Below are positions 953-42,592 of a DNA stretch of 64,000 nt, one piece after another; the first letter of the stretch is position 1, and each line of letters opens with the position of its first letter. The stretch lies in NCBI GenBank assembly GCA_964617125.1, contig CAZTVS010000005.1, forward strand, positions 16,529 through 80,528. The letters are read 5' to 3'. Made by a program: the position numbers and the translations under genes. This DNA comes from an uncultured Acidobacteriota bacterium. Lineage in GTDB: Bacteria > Acidobacteriota > UBA6911 > CAINFC01. Below the pieces are notes generated by a model, which had not been told where the DNA came from, did no database searches, and saw only the letters and a list, made by a program, of their open reading frames with translations.

Positions 953-1822
953 ATGAATCTGCCGAAATGTGTTGTTACTCTTTGCTTTTGCCTGACACTT
1001 TTTGCTGCCGATCCTCAGGTCATCCCTCTCTACCCAGGCCCTGCTCCGGGATCCGAATCCTGGGAATGGCCGGAAACGGAACAGTCATCCACTGACGGTA
1101 TCCGGCGTATCGCCAATGTGACCCGTCCTACCATTACCGTTTATCTTCCTGAAAAGTCCAGAGCTACCGGTACCGGGGTCGTGGTGTGTCCTGGGGGCGG
1201 CTTTCGTATCCTTGCCATCAGCCACGAAGGGGAAGATGTGGCCCGGTTCCTCAACAAACAGGGTGTTGCTGCTTTTGTTCTCAAGTATCGCGTCATGCGC
1301 ACCGGCGATGAAGCAGGAAAGGACAAAGAGGTGATGGCGCGACGCCGGGCGGAGGTGATCCCGCTGAGCATAGCCGACGGGTTGGAAGCCGTTCGTCTGG
1401 TGCGCCGCCGGGCTGCCGAATGGGGCCTGCAACACAACCGCATCGGTATTATGGGTTTTTCGGCCGGAGGTTGGGTAACCACCGCCGTTACCCTACAAGG
1501 ATCGGGGGACAGCCGGCCGGATTTTGCCGCGCCAATTTACGCTGCCATGCCGGAAAACCTGTCGGTGCCGTCGCAGCCGCCACCACTTTTTCTGGTCCAT
1601 GCCGACAATGACGTTACGGTGCGTACGGAAAAAACCAGCGTTCGTCTTTACACTGCCTGGAAACAGGCCGGGGCTTCCGCCGAGCTGCATATCTATGCCC
1701 ACGGAGGACACGGATTCGGTATGCTTAAAAAATCGCTTCCGGTCGATTCTTGGGCGGATCGTTTGCGGGACTGGATGCAATCTCTGGATCTTCTATCGCC
1801 AACACCAGGAAACAGGCCGTAG
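953..1822 (+). CDS. secreted alpha/beta-hydrolase-fold esterase/lipase
   Basis: N-terminal signal peptide. Nucleophile elbow GFSAGG and an HGGHGF motif are typical of esterases, BD-FAE-like carbohydrate esterases and prolyl oligopeptidases. Confidence 0.75.
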   Translation: MNLPKCVVTLCFCLTLFAADPQVIPLYPGPAPGSESWEWPETEQSSTDGIRRIANVTRPTITVYLPEKSRATGTGVVVCPGGGFRILAISHEGEDVARFLNKQGVAAFVLKYRVMRTGDEAGKDKEVMARRRAEVIPLSIADGLEAVRLVRRRAAEWGLQHNRIGIMGFSAGGWVTTAVTLQGSGDSRPDFAAPIYAAMPENLSVPSQPPPLFLVHADNDVTVRTEKTSVRLYTAWKQAGASAELHIYAHGGHGFGMLKKSLPVDSWADRLRDWMQSLDLLSPTPGNRP

Positions 1823-1857: not shown

Positions 1858-4278
1858 TCAATCTTTTTTTAATAGCCAGACTTCCGCCACCTGGCATCCT
1901 CTTCCGTTTACCAGATGCCAGGTCAGTTCCAGCGTACCGGCCTGGATGGCCTGTTCGGGGATGTCGAATTCCATCGGAAGCGGATCCTCCGGTCGCGGGA
2001 TGGGTCCATGGATGGCCGTCTTACCGGCAGACAACGTCATAGTCGATTGAAAACGGCCGCTGTAAATGACCCGCAGACGATAGCGCGCCCTGCGGTCCAG
2101 GCCGTCATAGCGCATGCGCAGGGGTTCTCCGAAAAGCGTCTGCGCCTGGTCCTGCCAGGATAGCCGCCAGTCCTGATTGTCGATGAATTCCTGTTGCGAA
2201 GAGGCGGTGCCGCCGGGGTCCTCTCTCCAGGACTTCTGTCGAACCAGGTGGGGAGATCTTTCCGGATTTCCCAGATCGTCATAGAATCCGCCGGGACCCG
2301 GGTCTTCCCAACCGATGATCTGCCGTATGCGACGGGACTGCTCTGCGGGGTCGGCCAGGGCCTTTATCTCCCTCCATTGGGATTCGATCCAGTCGGCATC
2401 GCTCAAAGGGTAATCGAGGGTGTCGAGAACGGCCCCCCGCTCTACGTTTCGGGCCAAATACGGAGGCAGAACGCTCAATTGAAAACCTATACCGGCAAAG
2501 AGTTCTTTTCCCAGCTGTACGATCCTGCGGCGATACGCGCTGGTCGACAGGGTTTTCCGGGTTTGTTCGTTGATGGCCTCCATTTCCTCCAGAGCGGAGG
2601 AGATCCCTGCCGGATCGGCTGTCCGCAGTCTTTGATAGATACGGGCTTCCGCCAAAGATTCCTGTTTCGCTTTTTCCTGCACGTAAGCGTCATAACAGGC
2701 CCGGAAGAGGTACATCTGCAGCCGCCAGTTTCGGTCCCTTTCCTCAGGCCGGCGATCGGCGATGCCGGTCCAAAGGGCAAGGGTTCCGGCAATACCCTGG
2801 TTTTGCAGGATCGGACCCGTCCAGTTGTCCTCCAATCGTAACAAAGCACGGCTGGCCGGTTTGGCCTCTTCCGGGTTCAGAAATACCTTGGCATACTCCT
2901 CGAGAATCGTTTCGACAGGAGAGGTGGAGTCCCATCCCAGTGCGCTCCACACGATCTTGTTGAGGTCATCATGGATCCCTTCGGAGTATGTGATGAAACC
3001 GCAGGCAAGGTCTTTATACAGATTGTGAATATGAGCCATGGCCCGAGGCCGCGGACAGACCGGCTCCCGACCCAGGGTATGGGCAAAGGCCCGGTTCCAG
3101 TCCGGAACGGGATACTGGCTGCGCAGGCAATGCGAGATGTCGGGATAGCGCCGAATAGCGTAGCGGGCGGGAATTCTTCGGCGCAATTCCGGCAGGCTGA
3201 GTTTGGTCCAGGGTCCAAATACGATGCCTTCCAGCCAGTCCGGATGCTCCCGATGCAGGAATTCGAACAGGTATTCGTTGTGTTCCGCTTCAAAGGTCTG
3301 GTTGGAAAGCCAGAGCCTGGCGCCGGGATGGACTGAGCTTAACACTCCTGAAAGTCGCTGCAGCCAGGGCAGAAGAATTTCCGGAGGAGTGTCTCCGCCA
3401 TCCCCTCCGGGAACAAATACCGCATCCAGCCGTTTCATGCTGCGAAAGAGGGCCCGCCATCGTTCCAGCTCCCTCTCGGCGAGTTCATCGGTGCCTATTT
3501 GAGACACGTATACCGGTATCCAGCACCACACATCCAGCCCGTAAGAATCCAGCAGGGCAGACAGCCGCATATTCATGTCCCACATGGAGAGTTTCATCAG
3601 GGGTGTCCTGGGCTCCGTAGGATCCAGGGTGGGAACGAGTTCGATGGCATTGGTGCCGAAAAGAATCAGATCGCGAAGATACTGCTCGAAGGCGGATTCA
3701 TCCCAGGCGTCGTAACTATTGGGCGTACCACGATAGCCGAGCTGATGTCCCCGAATGGGGATTTCAGGTGCGGTTGCCAGAGCCATTTGTGCCGGGAAAA
3801 ACAACCCATTCATTTTCATTTCCGCCAGCCGCAGAAAACGGCCGGCGGCAAACAGGACGCCTCGTGGATCGTAGCCCAGGAGACAGATCCGGGAATTCTT
3901 TGGATCGGACCAGATGGCATACGCATCTTTTTTGTGCGGCAGAGAAAGACTGCCCGGCGGTTTTGCGTCCGAAGCGAGGCGCGCAGCCGTGGCCAGAAGG
4001 ATGAGAGGCGTCTTTTCCCGGGAGGGGAAAGATTTCTCCATGGTCAGAGCGATGTGGGTGCGTCTTTGAATTTCCTCCTGCAGCATCTGTGCCGCCTTGA
4101 CGACAATGGCATTCGATCCGTTAAAGAAAATCTTTGCCTGTGAAAGATCGATGGAAGTCCGGGAGTCGTCTCCTGCCTGCATTCCTTTAGCGAAAATATT
4201 CTGCATGGGCAAAAGGGCGAAGAGGAGGGAAAAAACCGGTACGATGGTTCTGTGGTCGGACAGGAGCAATTTTCGCAT
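1858..4278 (-). CDS. secreted glycoside hydrolase, family uncertain (possibly alpha-glucuronidase-like GH115/GH67/GH20-fold)
   Basis: 806-aa product from the ATG at 4278 (MRKLLLSDHRTIVPVFSLLFALLPMQNIFA is a signal peptide). Motifs RGHQLGYRGTPNSYDAWD and VFVPGGDGGD suggest a GH TIM-barrel. Family assignment is from memory only. Confidence 0.55.
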   Translation of the reverse strand: MRKLLLSDHRTIVPVFSLLFALLPMQNIFAKGMQAGDDSRTSIDLSQAKIFFNGSNAIVVKAAQMLQEEIQRRTHIALTMEKSFPSREKTPLILLATAARLASDAKPPGSLSLPHKKDAYAIWSDPKNSRICLLGYDPRGVLFAAGRFLRLAEMKMNGLFFPAQMALATAPEIPIRGHQLGYRGTPNSYDAWDESAFEQYLRDLILFGTNAIELVPTLDPTEPRTPLMKLSMWDMNMRLSALLDSYGLDVWCWIPVYVSQIGTDELAERELERWRALFRSMKRLDAVFVPGGDGGDTPPEILLPWLQRLSGVLSSVHPGARLWLSNQTFEAEHNEYLFEFLHREHPDWLEGIVFGPWTKLSLPELRRRIPARYAIRRYPDISHCLRSQYPVPDWNRAFAHTLGREPVCPRPRAMAHIHNLYKDLACGFITYSEGIHDDLNKIVWSALGWDSTSPVETILEEYAKVFLNPEEAKPASRALLRLEDNWTGPILQNQGIAGTLALWTGIADRRPEERDRNWRLQMYLFRACYDAYVQEKAKQESLAEARIYQRLRTADPAGISSALEEMEAINEQTRKTLSTSAYRRRIVQLGKELFAGIGFQLSVLPPYLARNVERGAVLDTLDYPLSDADWIESQWREIKALADPAEQSRRIRQIIGWEDPGPGGFYDDLGNPERSPHLVRQKSWREDPGGTASSQQEFIDNQDWRLSWQDQAQTLFGEPLRMRYDGLDRRARYRLRVIYSGRFQSTMTLSAGKTAIHGPIPRPEDPLPMEFDIPEQAIQAGTLELTWHLVNGRGCQVAEVWLLKKD

Positions 4279-7577: not shown

Positions 7578-7650
7578 TGAGCCGTGCTGGATTCGAACCA
7601 GCGACCCTCTGCTTAAAAGGCAGATGCTCTGCCACCTGAGCTAACGGCCC
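7578..7650 (-). tRNA. tRNA-Lys (anticodon UUU)
   Basis: The reverse complement folds as a cloverleaf: GGGCCGT acceptor stem, anticodon loop CTTTTAA, T-arm GGTTCGAATCC, discriminator A. CCA is not encoded. Confidence 0.85.
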
Positions 7651-7806: not shown

Positions 7807-9453
7807 TCATCCCTGGAGGATGGACTTCAGGTCCTCTTCCGCGGTTTTGATGGGTGTCAGTTGGAACTTCTCCACCAGAACGTTCAACACATTGGGCCCC
7901 ACGAAGGCAGGAAGGCTGGGCCCGATGCGTATCTTTTTAATCCCGAGATAGAGCAGAGTAAGAAGGATACACACAGCCTTCTGTTCGTACCAGCTGAGTA
8001 TGAGCGACAACGGCAAGTCGTTAACTCCACAACCGAAGGCCTTTGATAGGGCCACGGCGATCTGTATGGCGGAATAGGCATCGTTGCACTGGCCGCAGTC
8101 GAGCAGACGGGGGATTCCACCGATTTCTCCGAAATCCAGTTTGTTGAAGCGGTATTTTCCGCAGGCCAGGGTGAGAATCACGCAATCCTCAGGAACCGCC
8201 TGGGCGAATTCGGTGTAATAATTACGCCCCGACTTGGCGCCATCGCACCCGCCGATGAGGAAAAAATGTCGTATCGCTCCCGCCTTGACCGCCTCCACCA
8301 CCTTTCCCGCCACGCTCATGACGGTATTGTGGGCAAATCCGACGGTAATGTACTTCGGCTCCTCATCCTTCGTAAAACCGGGTGCCTCCAGGGCCGCACG
8401 AATGACAGAAGAAAAATCGCTATTCTCTACATGCACGACGCCCGGCCATTCCACCAGGCCGGTGGTAAAGATGCGCTGCTTATAGCCTTCGGCCGGTTTC
8501 TGTATGCAGTTGGTGGTCATCAGGATGGCCCCGGGAAACTGATCGAACTCCTTCTGCTGGTCCTGCCAGGCGCCGCCGTAGTTGCCGACCAGGTGTTTAT
8601 ATTTCTTCAATCCGGGATAGGCATTGCAGGGAAGCATCTCTCCATGGGTATAGATATGGATACCTTTTCCTTCCGTCTGCTGCAGTAACAGATCCAGGTC
8701 TTTCAGATCATGTCCTGACACCAGAATACATTTCCCCGCTACAGGCGTAATCCTGACTTGCGTGGGTTCCGGATGTCCATAGGCCTCCGTGTTGGCGGCA
8801 TCCAGCAACCCCATGACCTTGAGATTGACCTCTCCGGTCTTCATGGCCATGGACACCAGGGAATCCACATCGGTTGGATTTTCCGCCAGGTAGTTCAGCG
8901 CATGATGGAAGAAAGCAAACACCTCGTCCTCTTCCTTGCCCAAAACCATCGCATGGTCCATGTAGGCGGCCATACCTTTCAAGCCATAGAGGATCAGCTC
9001 CTGTAGGCCGGCGATATCGTCCCCCAGGGTCTGTTTCTTTTTCAGCAGTGTCAAATCTTGTCCCTGACCGGACAATCCGGAGGTGTCTGCTTCCGGCTGG
9101 AAGGTTGCCGGACCTGCCGGGCTTTGCGGCTGGATGCCCTGAGCGGCACATTGTTTTTCATAGGACCGGCGCAGTTCATTTTTCAGTGCCGCACCATGGT
9201 AAATGCGCTGCCGTATCGTCTGAGCGTCAAAATTGACATTGGTCACAGTTGTGAACAGAGCTTCAACGACAAAGCGGTCGGCTGCCGCATCCTTCATACC
9301 GGTGGAGCGCAACCTGTGGGCCCATTGGGCTACACCTTTGGTTACATACACCAGCAGGTCCTGCAACACAGCGGTTTCTTCCTCTTTGCCACAGACACCC
9401 TTCACCGTACACCCCGTCCCGCGAGCCGTCTGCTCGCATTGATAACAAAACAT
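7807..9453 (-). CDS. hcp: hydroxylamine reductase / hybrid-cluster protein
   Basis: N-terminus MFCYQCEQT…GVCGK is the hallmark of Hcp, and the product is about 550 aa. The first ATG is at 9453. The ORF track extends to an upstream GTG at 9465. Confidence 0.9.
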   Translation of the reverse strand: MFCYQCEQTARGTGCTVKGVCGKEEETAVLQDLLVYVTKGVAQWAHRLRSTGMKDAAADRFVVEALFTTVTNVNFDAQTIRQRIYHGAALKNELRRSYEKQCAAQGIQPQSPAGPATFQPEADTSGLSGQGQDLTLLKKKQTLGDDIAGLQELILYGLKGMAAYMDHAMVLGKEEDEVFAFFHHALNYLAENPTDVDSLVSMAMKTGEVNLKVMGLLDAANTEAYGHPEPTQVRITPVAGKCILVSGHDLKDLDLLLQQTEGKGIHIYTHGEMLPCNAYPGLKKYKHLVGNYGGAWQDQQKEFDQFPGAILMTTNCIQKPAEGYKQRIFTTGLVEWPGVVHVENSDFSSVIRAALEAPGFTKDEEPKYITVGFAHNTVMSVAGKVVEAVKAGAIRHFFLIGGCDGAKSGRNYYTEFAQAVPEDCVILTLACGKYRFNKLDFGEIGGIPRLLDCGQCNDAYSAIQIAVALSKAFGCGVNDLPLSLILSWYEQKAVCILLTLLYLGIKKIRIGPSLPAFVGPNVLNVLVEKFQLTPIKTAEEDLKSILQG

Positions 9454-10034: not shown

Positions 10035-10130
10035 GTAAAAAAGTCCTTGTTTTGTTTCTTTTCGATGAATCCGTATGGATTCGAAAGATGTTGCCGGCGG
10101 GACGCCGGCGCTCCCAGGGCTTTTTATCGG
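10035..10130 (+). mobile_element. degraded third copy of the 110-bp MITE-like repeat (see 40136..40245 and 41152..41261)
   Basis: Shares the core …GTTTCTTTTCG…TTGCCGGCGGGACGCCGGCGCTCCCAGG(G/A)CTTTTTA… with the other two copies. The terminal inverted repeats are decayed and no clear target duplication remains. Confidence 0.6.
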
Positions 10131-38804: not shown

Positions 38805-39719
38805 TTGAAACGGACCTTCATGGGAAAAGCAGGAGATAACCGGTTGAACTCCTTACTTGCCCGCGGGCGGGAGTTTTTGCAGCAGAAGGGTATAAGGCAA
38901 TATGGCTGGGACGCTCTCCTGCTGCTTGCCTGCGTCCTGCATAAAGAAAAAGAATATATCTTCGCCCACCCGGAAAAAATCCTGACTCCAGTCCAGGTAA
39001 AACGGTTCTGGAACTTTCTGCAGCGAAGGGTCGAAGGAATTCCTTTACAATACCTGCAGGGAGTACAGGAATTCTGGGGGCGTGACTTTCGAGTGGACTG
39101 GCGGGTACTGATACCCCGTCCGGAGACCGAACTGCTGGTGGAAAAGGCCATCGAACAAGCCGGAAGGATCCAATCGCGACGTAAACTGCCGTTCCTTTCC
39201 ATTGCCGATATCGGAACCGGATCCGGTTGCATTGCGATTACCCTGGCACTGGAAATTGAAAATTGTCGGGTGGTTGCCACCGACATCAGCGAAGAAGCCT
39301 TGCAAAGGGCCAGAAGCAATGCTCGCCGGTACGGACTGAGGTCGCCATCCCTGCGTTTCTGTTGCGGAGATGGCCTGGAACCCCTGAAAAGATTGGGTTC
39401 TACGACTCGCTGGCAAATGATCGTGAGCAATCCTCCTTACGTGGCCCGAAGGGAGGAGGCGTCGCTCGACCGAGAAGTGAAGGACCACGAACCGGAGGTC
39501 GCGCTTTTCGGAGGAGAGGATGGGCTGGAGATGATTCGAGGTCTGGTCCCTCAAGTTGAGGAATATCTTGAATCGGAGGGGGTCTTTCTCATGGAAATAG
39601 GATATGGTCAGGAAAGCCAAGTGAAGGACCTGTTCTGCAGCAAGAAGTGGAAGTCGGTACGCTTCTGGCCGGACTGCCGTGGAATCCCACGATGTCTGCA
39701 GGCTGAGAAATACGGCTAA
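38805..39719 (+). CDS. prmC: release-factor glutamine N5-methyltransferase PrmC/HemK
   Basis: SAM motif I (DIGTGSGCIAI) and the NPPY catalytic motif. Confidence 0.85.
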   Translation: MKRTFMGKAGDNRLNSLLARGREFLQQKGIRQYGWDALLLLACVLHKEKEYIFAHPEKILTPVQVKRFWNFLQRRVEGIPLQYLQGVQEFWGRDFRVDWRVLIPRPETELLVEKAIEQAGRIQSRRKLPFLSIADIGTGSGCIAITLALEIENCRVVATDISEEALQRARSNARRYGLRSPSLRFCCGDGLEPLKRLGSTTRWQMIVSNPPYVARREEASLDREVKDHEPEVALFGGEDGLEMIRGLVPQVEEYLESEGVFLMEIGYGQESQVKDLFCSKKWKSVRFWPDCRGIPRCLQAEKYG

Positions 39720-39761: not shown

Positions 39762-40106
39762 ATGAGCGATTGCCTTTTTTGCAGGATCATAGAAAAAGAG
39801 ATTCCGGCAAAAACGGTTTATGAAGATCAGGATACTTTGGTCTTCGAGGACATCCATCCGCAAGCCCCGGTTCACTGTCTTGTCATTCCCAAAAAACACA
39901 TCCCTTCCATCAACAGCCTCACGGAAGAGGATAGCGCCTTGTTGGCAAAGGTCATGCAGACGGCAAGAAAAACCGCCATGGACAAAGGCATCGACAAATC
40001 GGGATACCGTATGGTGATCAATACCAACGCCCAGGCCGGGCAGACCGTTTTTCACCTGCATGTACATCTGCTGGGTGGTCGGAACATGAATTGGCCGCCG
40101 GGATAG
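39762..40106 (+). CDS. HIT-family protein (Hint-like)
   Basis: CLFCRI…HCLVIPKKH…HLHVHLLGG is the classic Hint signature. Confidence 0.85.
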   Translation: MSDCLFCRIIEKEIPAKTVYEDQDTLVFEDIHPQAPVHCLVIPKKHIPSINSLTEEDSALLAKVMQTARKTAMDKGIDKSGYRMVINTNAQAGQTVFHLHVHLLGGRNMNWPPG

Positions 40107-40135
40107 AAAACAATTGGAAAAACCGATTCAGGGAT

Positions 40136-40245
40136 GACGAAGCGGTAAAAAGTCCTGGGAGCGCCGGCGTCCCGCCGGCAAAAGCAATGGAATCAACACG
40201 AGATTTGCGAAAAGAAACGGAACAAAGACTTTTTGCCGCTTCGTC
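40136..40245 (-). mobile_element. 110-bp MITE-like element (copy B) with 21-bp TIRs and 6-bp flanking direct repeat AGGGAT
   Basis: The left end GACGAAGCGGTAAAAAGTC is the reverse complement of the right end GACTTTTTGCCGCTTCGTC. The internal hairpin is GCCGGCGGGACGCCGGC. AGGGAT occurs at 40130-40135 and again at 40246-40251. Confidence 0.75.
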
Positions 40246-40534
40246 AGGGATGGTGCAGGCGGACGATGGTTGCGCCCCAGTGTCCCCTCTCCGGGGGCGC
40301 TTCATAATAATCGGCAACCATGTCCAACCGGGACAAAACCTTCCATACGAGGGAACGCAATACTCCTGTGCCCTTGCCGTGGATGATACGGACTTCCGGG
40401 ATATTCCGGCGGCGGCATTCCAGCAGATATTCCTCTACCAAGGAGGCAACTTCCCCGGGCTGAAAGGTATGCAGATCCAGAGAATCGCCAATGGGCACGA
40501 CTACGGCCGCATCTTCCCTGCTTTCCGGATTCAT
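40244..40534 (-). CDS. small Smr-domain protein (standalone Smr/MutS2-C-like nuclease domain)
   Basis: …LDLHTFQPGEVASLVEEYLLECRRRNIPEVRIIHGKGTGVLRSLVWKVLS… is the Smr signature. The ATG at 40534 immediately follows the stop of the upstream gene (TAAcATG). The stop codon straddles the repeat-element/TSD junction. The ORF track offers an alternative start at 40588. Confidence 0.65.
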   Translation of the reverse strand: MNPESREDAAVVVPIGDSLDLHTFQPGEVASLVEEYLLECRRRNIPEVRIIHGKGTGVLRSLVWKVLSRLDMVADYYEAPPERGHWGATIVRLHHP

Positions 40535-40535
40535 G

Positions 40536-41072
40536 TTAAAAGGAGCTCTTTTTCCCTCCACAGAGAACAATGAGGCGGCGCAGCGCATTGATTAAGCGTT
40601 GCCCGTCATCCCCTTCCGGACGGATGACGATATCCAGATGATCCTTTTTGATGGATCCGTTCAGGGTGACCGCCGGATTACGATTGGTTGCCTGGATGAT
40701 CAGGGTTCGTTCCCGGCCAAGAGAGAGGGGATCTCCGGGCATCACCCTGAGCTCGATCTGTTCCGGATCCAGGACGTTCAGGGGGGCCGTCCACTGGAAT
40801 TTTTTCTCCGTCAGTGCCCCGGGATTACGTCGGTGGGTTACGTTGATGGTGCAATTCTCGATGGAAACGGCCACTGTCGCATCATAATACGATACGGTAG
40901 AAATGATTTGCGGATTCCATTGAGCGTTCAGGCTGTTCACCAGAAAATCGATCGTCTCCTTCTGTGAAGGTTCGGTGGAGGCCTGATCACCGTGATGGCA
41001 GGCCGGAGAAGCCATAAGGAGAAGAGAGAAGAGGAGGGACATCCTCAGGGATACGTTTTTTAGCGCGAACAT
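40536..41072 (-). CDS. hypothetical secreted protein (co-cistronic with the Smr gene)
   Basis: The ATG at 41072 is preceded by GAGG. A signal peptide (…SLLFSLLLMASPA) is followed by an approximately 150-aa domain with no recognised family. The ORF track begins at a TTG at 41117. Confidence 0.5.
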   Translation of the reverse strand: MFALKNVSLRMSLLFSLLLMASPACHHGDQASTEPSQKETIDFLVNSLNAQWNPQIISTVSYYDATVAVSIENCTINVTHRRNPGALTEKKFQWTAPLNVLDPEQIELRVMPGDPLSLGRERTLIIQATNRNPAVTLNGSIKKDHLDIVIRPEGDDGQRLINALRRLIVLCGGKKSSF

Positions 41073-41151
41073 AGCATTACCTCTGAGAAAGAAGAGAAAA
41101 CGAATAAGAAAAACCAATCATCCTCGCGATAAATCGATAACTGGTATTCAT

Positions 41152-41261
41152 GACGGCCCGGCAAAAAGTCTTTATTCCGTTTCTTTTCGTAAATTCCGTG
41201 TTGATTCCATTGTTTTTGCCGGCGGGACGCCGGCGCTCCCAGGACTTTTTACCGGGCCGTC
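41152..41261 (+). mobile_element. 110-bp MITE-like element (copy C) with 21-bp TIRs and 6-bp flanking direct repeat ATTCAT
   Basis: The left end GACGGCCCGGCAAAAAGTC is the reverse complement of the right end GACTTTTTACCGGGCCGTC. ATTCAT occurs at 41146-41151 and 41262-41267. The internal 70 bp are about 95% identical to the reverse complement of copy B. Confidence 0.75.
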
Positions 41262-41302
41262 ATTCATTATAATCACTTCAATACGAAAGCGTAAGGCAGA
41301 GA

Positions 41303-42592
41303 GTGGAAGAATTTAAAGATCGCCGCCTTTTGTTGTTCTTGCTGGCGGTAAATACGGTCAATTTTTACGATCGGCAGCTGCTGGGAGCCGTCACCGAGCC
41401 GATACGCCGGGAGTGGCTCTTAAGCGATCTCCAGATAGGATTTTTGAGTACGGCCTTTACTCTTCTCTATGCCGGTGCCGGAATCCCGTTAGGCAGAATG
41501 GCCGATACTCGATCTGGAAAAACGGTACTGCAGCTGGGACTGCTCGTATGGAGCCTGCTGACCGGGCTTTGCAGTTTTGCCTGGAACTACTGGTCACTTT
41601 TCCTACTCCGCATTGGAGTCGGAATAGGGGAGGCGTGTTGTGCCCCGACGGCGATCAGCATCATTGGGAAAAGATTCCCTGTTACCGGACGTTCTGCAGC
41701 GACATCTCTTTTCATGATGGGGCTGCCGCTTGGTTCTGCCTTGAGTTATTCCCTGGGCGGATATCTTTCCCACGAATACGGCTGGCGCTGGGCCTTCCTG
41801 ACTGCCGGCTTGGCTGGAATCCTGCTGGCTGTCATCGGAAGGTATGGGATCGAGTTTGCCGAGGAAAGAAAAACAACCGTACCGCAACACGAAAGAGAAA
41901 AACAACGGAGCGGATTTCCTCTTTTATTGTCAATCCTGAGAGTCCCAGGCTTTTTCTGGATCATTCTTTCCGGGGCGCTGCATAACTTTAACCTGTATGC
42001 CGTCAGTGCCTTTCTTCCTTCTTTTCTGGTTCGCTACCACAGGATGGACATTGCAAACGCCGGCTTTACCTCCGGGATTGCTTACGCCCTGTTGGGCGGA
42101 ATCGGCATGATCCTGGGCGGATTTATGGGAGATCGCTTCCGCCCCGGAAAACATTTGCCACGGAACAGATTAATGCTGGTGTTTCTTACCATGATTCCAA
42201 CCACACCCTTGTGTTTTCTTGCCCTGTCTTACCCCCAGGGGGATGTGGTTCCATTCGCGCTCGCTTTCGGGGCTGCCGCCATGCTGATGTACGTTTATTA
42301 TCCGGTCACCTACGCCGCCATCCAGGATGTAAGCCCGAAGGAGTCACAGGCCACGGCGATGTCGATCTACCTGGCGGTCATGTATTTTTTAGGCGCCTCC
42401 TTGGGTCCGTCCGTTTTCGGAGGTCTGAGCGACTATTTCCAGAAAAGAATAGGCAGCCAATCAGGTTTGGCCATCGATAGGAATTGGGTAGAAGGGGAAG
42501 GCCTGCGTCAGGCAATGTTCCTCATACCGGTTCTTACCATGGCCGTTGCACTGACAAGTCTTATTGCCGCAAACCGGGTGCGGAAAAACTGA
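41303..42592 (+). CDS. MFS transporter
   Basis: GTG start. 12 TM helices and the MFS motif A region (GRMADTRSGK). Confidence 0.85.
   Translation: MEEFKDRRLLLFLLAVNTVNFYDRQLLGAVTEPIRREWLLSDLQIGFLSTAFTLLYAGAGIPLGRMADTRSGKTVLQLGLLVWSLLTGLCSFAWNYWSLFLLRIGVGIGEACCAPTAISIIGKRFPVTGRSAATSLFMMGLPLGSALSYSLGGYLSHEYGWRWAFLTAGLAGILLAVIGRYGIEFAEERKTTVPQHEREKQRSGFPLLLSILRVPGFFWIILSGALHNFNLYAVSAFLPSFLVRYHRMDIANAGFTSGIAYALLGGIGMILGGFMGDRFRPGKHLPRNRLMLVFLTMIPTTPLCFLALSYPQGDVVPFALAFGAAAMLMYVYYPVTYAAIQDVSPKESQATAMSIYLAVMYFLGASLGPSVFGGLSDYFQKRIGSQSGLAIDRNWVEGEGLRQAMFLIPVLTMAVALTSLIAANRVRKN

Follow-up and report, generated by a model that had tools for sequence, protein, structure and literature searches.

A miniature inverted-repeat element inserted on either side of a minimal Smr gene pair in an uncultured Acidobacteriota bacterium

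Bacterial MITEs (miniature transposable elements with inverted repeats) such as Correia/NEMIS, ERIC/IRU, RUP and YPAL (reviewed in PMC2229807) are non-coding elements of ~100-200 bp with terminal inverted repeats and a target-site duplication, whose transcripts form one long end-to-end stem-loop, which lie mostly between genes, near or overlapping gene ends, and which occur as filled and empty sites among related strains. Another kind of small repeat, the repetitive extragenic palindromes (REPs), is described as bracketing the genes of its own RAYT transposases (PMC3733652, PMC2817692), and palindromic repeat termini often supply stop codons to flanking open reading frames (ORFs; PMC3733652). 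Here we describe a locus that touches on both kinds of repeat. It lies in a 64,000-nt stretch of DNA (the window) from an uncultured Acidobacteriota bacterium (contig CAZTVS010000005.1, positions 16,529 to 80,528), in which two inverted copies of a 112-nt element, copies B and C, bracket two genes encoding a putatively exported orphan protein (the partner) and a minimal Smr-domain protein. Taken together, our data make it very probable that a recently active MITE inserted here twice, and independently, on the two sides of an operon that was already there.

Copy B (40135..40246, minus strand; TGACGAAGCGG...CCGCTTCGTCA) lies between the convergent 3' ends of a HIT-family gene and the Smr gene. 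Copy C (41151..41262, plus strand; TGACGGCCCGG...CCGGGCCGTCA), relative to which B is inverted, sits between the divergent 5' ends of the partner gene and an MFS transporter gene, upstream of both, at a distance of 78 nt from the partner ATG and of 40 nt from the MFS GTG. The element termini are TGACGNNNCGGYAAAAAGTC...GACTTTTTRCCGNNNCGTCA, i.e. TGACG...CGTCA, and the terminal inverted repeats of B and C span 20-21 bp at 95% complementarity. The original prediction, made from the letters of the window alone, had described two inverted near-identical repeats 0.9 kb apart, and we indeed found repeat arms of 118 nt (40134-40251 and 41146-41263) that are 89% complementary and separated by 894 nt. 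A third copy, copy A (10038..10130, plus strand), is intergenic with decayed outer arms, and is 82% identical to C over 93 nt. Both the 20-nt terminus and a 19-nt core sequence are matched three times in the window, as compared to 0.01 matches expected from shuffled sequence. Folded end to end, B and C each form a 20-21-bp stem (-46 to -52 kcal/mol, z -5.0 to -6.5), the fold of copy A being weaker (z -1.9 and -3.1).

Each of the two intact copies is flanked by its own short duplication: GGGA for B (40131..40134 on the left, 40247-40250 on the right) and TTCA for C (41147..41150 and 41263-41266). At both sites the duplication is preceded by A and followed by T, and a 6-bp duplication (AGGGAT for B, ATTCAT for C) around a 110-nt element fits equally well. 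With its terminal inverted repeats, its target duplication revealed by filled and empty sites, its small non-coding sequence and its three copies in 64 kb, the element is a MITE by the usual criteria (PMC2229807). In its size, its end-to-end stem-loop, its intergenic positions near or overlapping gene ends and its filled and empty sites it resembles the four families named above. On the other hand, its termini are unrelated to theirs, its duplication is 4 bp (or 6 bp) rather than TA, and in its interior there is a REP-type hairpin from a different family of repeats, one associated with RAYTs. No Rfam family exists for the element, and no further matches to its terminus, and hence no parent insertion sequence, were found in the 64-kb window.

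The evidence that carries our reading comes from related strains in which one or the other site is empty. In minus-strand orientation, the 3' end of the Smr gene reads ...CAC CAT CCC TGA CGA AGC GG, where the TGA (40246..40244) is formed by the first three bases of the element, and beyond the far end of copy B the same strand continues TCCC TGA ATC. The corresponding empty site is found in L134, a Logan contig from a ~96% strain, which reads ...CAC CAT CCC TGA AGG... and has, on the plus strand, a single ...TTCA GGGA TGGTG... at this position. The Smr and HIT stop codons are 21 nt apart in L134 versus 137 nt in the window, so that copy B has added a net 116 nt, made up of the 112-nt element and the 4-bp duplication GGGA (plus strand). 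The Smr protein was left unchanged because the element itself begins with TGA, and because the duplicated target is followed by the old TGA. It had been predicted that the Smr stop spans the element end and its target duplication, which is true in the 6-bp register (the T of the stop belonging to the duplication and the GA to the element), that the pre-insertion sequence would give the same stop, and that the element had inserted precisely at the gene end. The L134 allele bears out the latter two points, ending as it does in the same His-His-Pro-stop. Tolerated insertions like the one at this stop codon have been described before for REPs and MITEs, and the junction is an ordinary outcome of mobile-element insertion.

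The copy C site is represented in public data by empty, full and truncated alleles. L001, which comes from a ~95% strain and covers the partner gene and the MFS start, reads GGTATTCATTATAAT, with GGTA TTCA TTATAAT at the site, as compared to GGTA TTCA (112 nt) TTCA TTATAAT in the window, again a net difference of 116 nt. The truncated allele, seen in L002 (a JGI contig 99.8% identical to the window) and in L003 (a Logan contig), has a 31-nt deletion corresponding to positions 41148-41178 (near position 9388 in L002) that removes the partner-side arm together with one copy of the duplication, and it also shows two extra T residues in a T-run and a T-to-A change in the core. This version of copy C is immobilised. 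The comparison across related strains that had been proposed for this locus shows each insertion site to be polymorphic, each copy being singly absent somewhere.

Gene order and orientation are identical in L001, L002, L134 and the window. Since each copy is singly absent from a strain in which the genes are already in place and in the same orientation, the genes pre-date both insertions. Composite transposition is contradicted by the unlike outer flanks, GGGA next to HIT and TTCA next to MFS, and by the separate duplication around each copy. A further mark distinguishes the two copies: the arms of B read TGACG-AAG-CGG and CCG-CTT-CGTCA, and those of C read TGACG-GCC-CGG and CCG-GGC-CGTCA, so that the differing positions (40140-40142 and 40239-40241 in B; 41156-41158 and 41255-41257 in C) have changed in a complementary manner and the stem is kept. 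Wherever an arm is covered, in the window as well as in contigs L002, L003, L004 and L136, each copy shows its own matching set of variants. Recombination between B and C would give chimeric arms and split duplications, neither of which is seen, and for this reason we regard the window and L002, the only two assemblies that span both filled junctions, as un-inverted. The opposite orientation of the pair was found in no assembly (window, L001, L002 or L134).

Some points weigh against this reading of two independent MITE insertions. The empty alleles lie on short contigs from different samples, each documenting the absence of one copy. With three copies available and no autonomous parent found, it is the duplication from which the chemistry of transposition is deduced. 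That the arms vary in a complementary way is not predicted by a simple model of transposase binding sites, a consideration drawn from few copies, and it hints that the hairpin itself matters. Finally, consensus assemblies do not reveal minor inversion isomers.

In the history that we favour, a vertically inherited and older two-gene operon, consisting of an exported orphan protein and a minimal, translationally coupled Smr protein, stood between the HIT and MFS genes before a 112-nt non-autonomous element inserted twice and independently in the lineage of the window. One insertion entered the 21-nt spacer between the convergent 3' ends, between CCC and TGA, to give copy B, and the other the 114-nt divergent promoter region, to give copy C. 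Insertions altering either of the convergent ORFs were probably selected against.

We next turn to the two genes themselves and to whether they form a functional module. The partner gene (41072..40536, minus strand) encodes a 178-aa orphan protein and the Smr gene (40534..40244, minus strand) a 96-aa minimal Smr-domain protein (PF01713), the TAA stop of the partner being followed by a single C and then by the Smr ATG. Products of 178 and 96 aa with a 1-nt gap are also called independently on metagenome contigs, in keeping with the tightly coupled pair (TAAcATG) between copies B and C that had been read from the sequence; the length of 97 aa given there for the Smr protein is to be corrected to 96. 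A 114-aa version starting at an upstream ATG was also considered, and was ruled out because both the gene callers and a 70%-identical homologue (P0003) favour 96 aa.

The Smr protein consists of the domain and the 18 residues that precede it. Its match to PF01713 scores 78.2 bits (cut-off 25.7; E 5.4e-22), and the catalytic motifs DxH (LDLHT) and the HGKG loop (HGKGTG) are both present. DxH and GxG-type motifs define active Smr nucleases (bioRxiv 10.1101/2021.08.16.456513). In all likelihood the protein belongs to the MutS2/SmrB superfamily of endonucleases and nicks RNA or DNA; among solved structures, the Smr domain of MutS2 comes nearest to it (2zqe; E 1.8e-9). It shares with E. coli SmrB and with the MutS2 Smr domain the PF01713 domain, the catalytic DxH and the HGxG loop. 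However, it lacks the N-terminal extension through which SmrB, by means of a '--xxxa' helix, hooks uS2 (bioRxiv 10.1101/2021.08.16.456513), and, unlike MutS2, it has no ATPase/clamp part; a KOW domain is likewise missing. It falls far below the NCBIfam cut-offs for SmrA, SmrB and MutS2, scoring 27 bits versus a cut-off of 128 for SmrB (NF003432) and 61 bits versus 400 for MutS2 (TIGR01069), of which it covers positions 713-790 only. Small Smr proteins of 90-105 aa are common (1447 matches), and many come from Desulfobacterota-type metagenome-assembled genomes (MAGs).

The partner has a ribosome-binding site (GAGG) 9 nt upstream of its ATG and a hydrophobic, signal-peptide-like N-terminus, MFALKNVSLRMSLLFSLLLMASPAC followed by HHG, with a Cys at the boundary (..SPAC, then HHG). 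The remainder of the protein is a beta-rich domain followed by a conserved C-terminal helix that ends ..LxxLIxLCGGKxxxF. A PH-like fold, in which a C-terminal helix caps a sandwich of seven beta strands, was considered for the partner. No match to the partner was found in Pfam, NCBIfam or PADLOC, Foldseek returned no significant match in the PDB, and a profile search of 185,579 species genomes was also negative. A word-indexed search recovered a single cluster of homologues, an exhaustive HMMER search of 1.84 billion representatives recovered four, and a profile search five, the last adding P0126 and P0127. Two of the candidates, P0124 (with TRAM repeats) and P0125, were set aside as probable repeat or low-information matches. 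The credible relatives are P0123, P0126 and P0127 (27-38% identity, 139-160 aa) together with the P0122 cluster. A hydrophobic N-terminus is present in the first three and absent from the P0122 cluster, and all of them have the C-terminal ..HLIxLCGGKxxxF in common. The partner is a member of a tiny orphan family.

To the extent that the pairing recurs, it does so in a reduced form. In the sister lineage L010 an ORF of 75-78 aa, 60% identical to residues 109-178 of the partner, overlaps the Smr start codon (ATGA; coordinates 188-424 and 424-564). This short partner (69-75 aa; P0122 and P0128-P0130) was called in four separate assemblies on contigs of up to 6.3 kb; it starts at the position of Met111 in the window protein and has no signal peptide, and the DNA upstream of the L010 ORF (35% GC) retains no trace of the N-terminal half. 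The sister-lineage version lacking a signal peptide, secretion is not the conserved feature; in the sequences compared, if Smr keeps any part of this neighbour at all, it keeps the C-terminal ~70 residues. Upstream of P0003, the 70%-identical Smr homologue, lies an ORF, recognised by its position, that ends on the Smr start codon.

It is tempting to think that Smr has a dedicated functional partner (an adaptor, inhibitor or localiser) in the upstream protein, or at least in the ~70 residues at its C-terminus that include the LCGGK helix, in which case the two genes would constitute a new two-gene module. The tight TAAcATG coupling speaks for this idea, as do the relative in the sister lineage, which overlaps the Smr start in all its shortness and is seen in four assemblies, and, by its position, the ORF upstream of P0003. 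Purifying selection on both genes points the same way: in comparisons of the window with the ~96% strains, the Smr gene differs from that of L134 by 13 synonymous and 4 non-synonymous changes (dN/dS 0.09) and the partner gene from that of L001 by 16 and 7 (dN/dS 0.13). Even so we consider the idea unlikely. The two lineages are close enough for plain inherited synteny. No Smr gene is present on the contigs of the full-length distant homologues P0123, P0126 and P0127, and the readable Smr homologues of 55-62% identity have unrelated genes upstream (a chorismate-binding enzyme, a cytochrome-like protein, and another ORF overlapping the Smr start), with no match to the partner HMM at these loci. 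As the neighbourhoods of distant homologues differ on both sides, the pairing is not a property of either family. In addition, the signal peptide of the window partner would place it outside the cytoplasm, whereas the Smr protein has none, and neither PADLOC nor NCBIfam offers a match for the partner.

The pairing of a secreted protein with Smr had been called an arrangement not previously characterised, and in this we concur. The recurrence check proposed alongside it gave a divided answer, the pairing being absent near distant homologues of both proteins and the C-terminal version being kept in the sister lineage. That the link between Smr and partner is a real functional one, rather than the inherited synteny of related lineages, strikes us as distinctly doubtful. 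Although the short-form gene layout of the sister lineage resembles a type II toxin-antitoxin pair, such pairs have a small cytoplasmic antitoxin, and the window partner has a signal peptide and no PADLOC match. Speculatively, and with little probability in our estimation, the ~70-residue module (..PGDPL...LIxLCGGKxxxF) might be a cytoplasmic regulator or antitoxin-like partner of Smr that in the window is also made from the internal Met111, its output being modulated by the hairpin at the stop codon.

A different question is raised by the interior of the element. All three copies contain a REP-like core, TTGCCGGCGGGACGCCGGCGCTCCCAGG, with the hairpin GCCGGCG-GGA-CGCCGGC, located at 41216..41243 (plus strand) in copy C, 40154-40181 (minus strand) in copy B and 10091-10118 (plus strand) in copy A. 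This 28-nt core (TTGCCGGCGGGACGCCGGCGCNCCCAGG), a 7-bp GC hairpin with a tail, has at least 120 exact matches in metagenome contigs (L011-L130). Among the matches listed, the contigs come from soil, rhizosphere and peat and have unrelated flanks and a locus GC content of 42-72%, and 68 of the 112 unique matches form inverted doublets with a median spacer of 26 nt. On two contigs, L127 (~749-1620) and L070 (~8250-9309), core doublets stand on both sides of an IS200-like Y1 transposase gene (PF01797, E 1.5e-10 and 2.8e-9; HUH motif MPNHIHALIE). As the doublets bracket Y1 genes in the manner of the REP/RAYT or 'REPtron' layout, the core appears to be the repeat of a RAYT family. We found no paper that reports the core sequence, and no Rfam match at ten core-doublet loci. 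A search of viral contigs for the junction of arm and core gave one chance match, which was without the hairpin.

With REP, REPIN and BIME sequences the core has in common that it is short, GC-rich and palindromic, that its tail is conserved, and that most of its occurrences in metagenomes are in inverted doublets; REPs are also documented to have termini that provide stop codons or adjoin them (PMC3733652). In contrast to them, the element of the window combines one core with a target duplication and with 20-bp arms that are unrelated to theirs; there is neither a GTAG nor a CGTC tag at the head of the core, and no RAYT gene is found in the 64-kb window. It is on account of the single core just inside one arm, the unrelated arms and the duplication that we read the element as a MITE carrying a REP unit.

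The alternative would be a REP-derived unit rather than a DDE-type MITE, one that a RAYT-type tyrosine (HUH) transposase mobilises in the form of a single-stranded hairpin. In addition to the identity of the core to the metagenomic repeat and the doublets around Y1 genes, this proposal could draw on the covariation of the B and C arms at three positions with pairing kept, and on the very stable end-to-end stem. Transposition of the IS200/IS605 type by HUH enzymes makes no target duplication. Yet the 4-bp direct repeats around B differ from those around C, and the empty alleles have them once, which makes them true target duplications; moreover, the element has one core instead of a doublet. 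Arms of the window type were found at none of the fetched metagenome core loci, and a RAYT gene is lacking from the window as noted. We hold this route to be improbable, and retain the MITE with an embedded REP unit.

The least tenable proposal is that B, the genes and C are a unit, either a composite transposon that brought in the Smr pair or an invertible segment switching its expression: the copies are inverted, 894 nt apart and identical over a stretch of 41 nt, which would suffice for RecA to invert the segment on rare occasions, and Logan contigs L004 and L136 break at both copies as they would at any repeat, but with a separate duplication for each copy, unequal outer flanks, single absences in ~96% strains that have the genes, un-recombined duplications and arm pairs in the window and L002, no recombinase gene among the neighbours of the pair and no assembly in the other orientation, there is next to no chance that it is correct. 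Both of its versions were examined and rejected, the composite transposon for want of a shared outer duplication and because B and C are absent singly with the genes in place, and a past inversion in the window genome because both duplications and the copy-specific arm pairs are un-recombined. Of the cassette that had been predicted, what stands is the bracketing of the Smr genes by an inverted pair of MITEs, and what falls is its being a unit. The repeats had also been proposed as substrates for inversion; rare RecA-dependent inversion via the 41-nt run is possible in principle, whereas the intact duplications and arm pairs indicate that none has occurred here.

A similar layout was noticed elsewhere. 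On L028, an unrelated metagenome contig, a related element containing the core is present in two inverted copies (1032-1059, plus strand, and 2887-2914, minus strand) that bracket a single ORF. We considered whether this ORF might be a transposase, and rejected this, as it is methylmalonyl-CoA-mutase-like. The case suggests that a gene between inverted repeats is a common by-product of intergenic insertion.

The genes of the neighbourhood are, in order, prfA, prmC, HIT, the partner-Smr pair, MFS, rnpA, yidC, jag, mnmE, mnmG, rsmG and parA, with both rpmH-rnpA-yidC and prfA-prmC close to the operon. Specifically, prmC lies at 38844-39719, the HIT-family gene, convergent with Smr, at 39762..40106 (plus strand; Pfam HIT E 2.5e-29, also assigned by NCBIfam), and the MFS transporter gene, divergent from the partner, at 41303..42592 (plus strand; Pfam MFS_1 E 6e-52). 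No compositional anomaly of the pair was found. The best PrmC match in the 185,579-species genome collection, from Acidobacteriaceae MAGs, is 42% identical, and by this measure the collection holds no relative at species or genus level. The sole Rfam match at the gathering threshold in the window is a tRNA gene (7578-7650, minus strand).

What the two insertions might do to expression can be outlined from their positions. As modelled, copy B would give the Smr mRNA, and likewise a read-through transcript of the HIT gene, a 21-bp stem in which pairing begins at the U of the Smr UGA. In E. coli, ribosomes stall and translation can be reduced where a REP lies less than 16 nt away from the stop codon (PMC12306157), and by analogy the stem of copy B could stabilise the 3' end of the Smr mRNA, slow termination, or both. 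Given a stem at the stop codon and this precedent, an altered Smr output of the filled relative to the empty allele is plausible.

A perfect TATAAT is found at 41268-41273, two bases past the duplication on the right of copy C, with the MFS start 30 nt further downstream, and the ATTATAAT here reads TATAAT on the other strand too. Copy C adjoins this TATAAT and has come between it and the former upstream sequence, so that a promoter relying on the hexamer would have had its -35 region replaced, and from its intergenic position beside the hexamer it must have altered at least one promoter context. Consensus promoter and terminator scans of the filled and empty alleles gave nothing above shuffled sequences, and no full promoter.

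These findings mostly close the question of the bracketed 'cassette', which is an accident of two independent insertions. The locus offers a clean natural example, with both empty sites known, of a recently active MITE in a poorly sampled lineage, and one that is linked to a very widespread REP/RAYT repeat family of soil and peat for which we found no description by sequence. There is in addition a small lead in the association between a minimal Smr nuclease and a module of 70 residues from an orphan family; if the C-terminal module were indeed a regulator of Smr, this would be a new two-gene Smr module.

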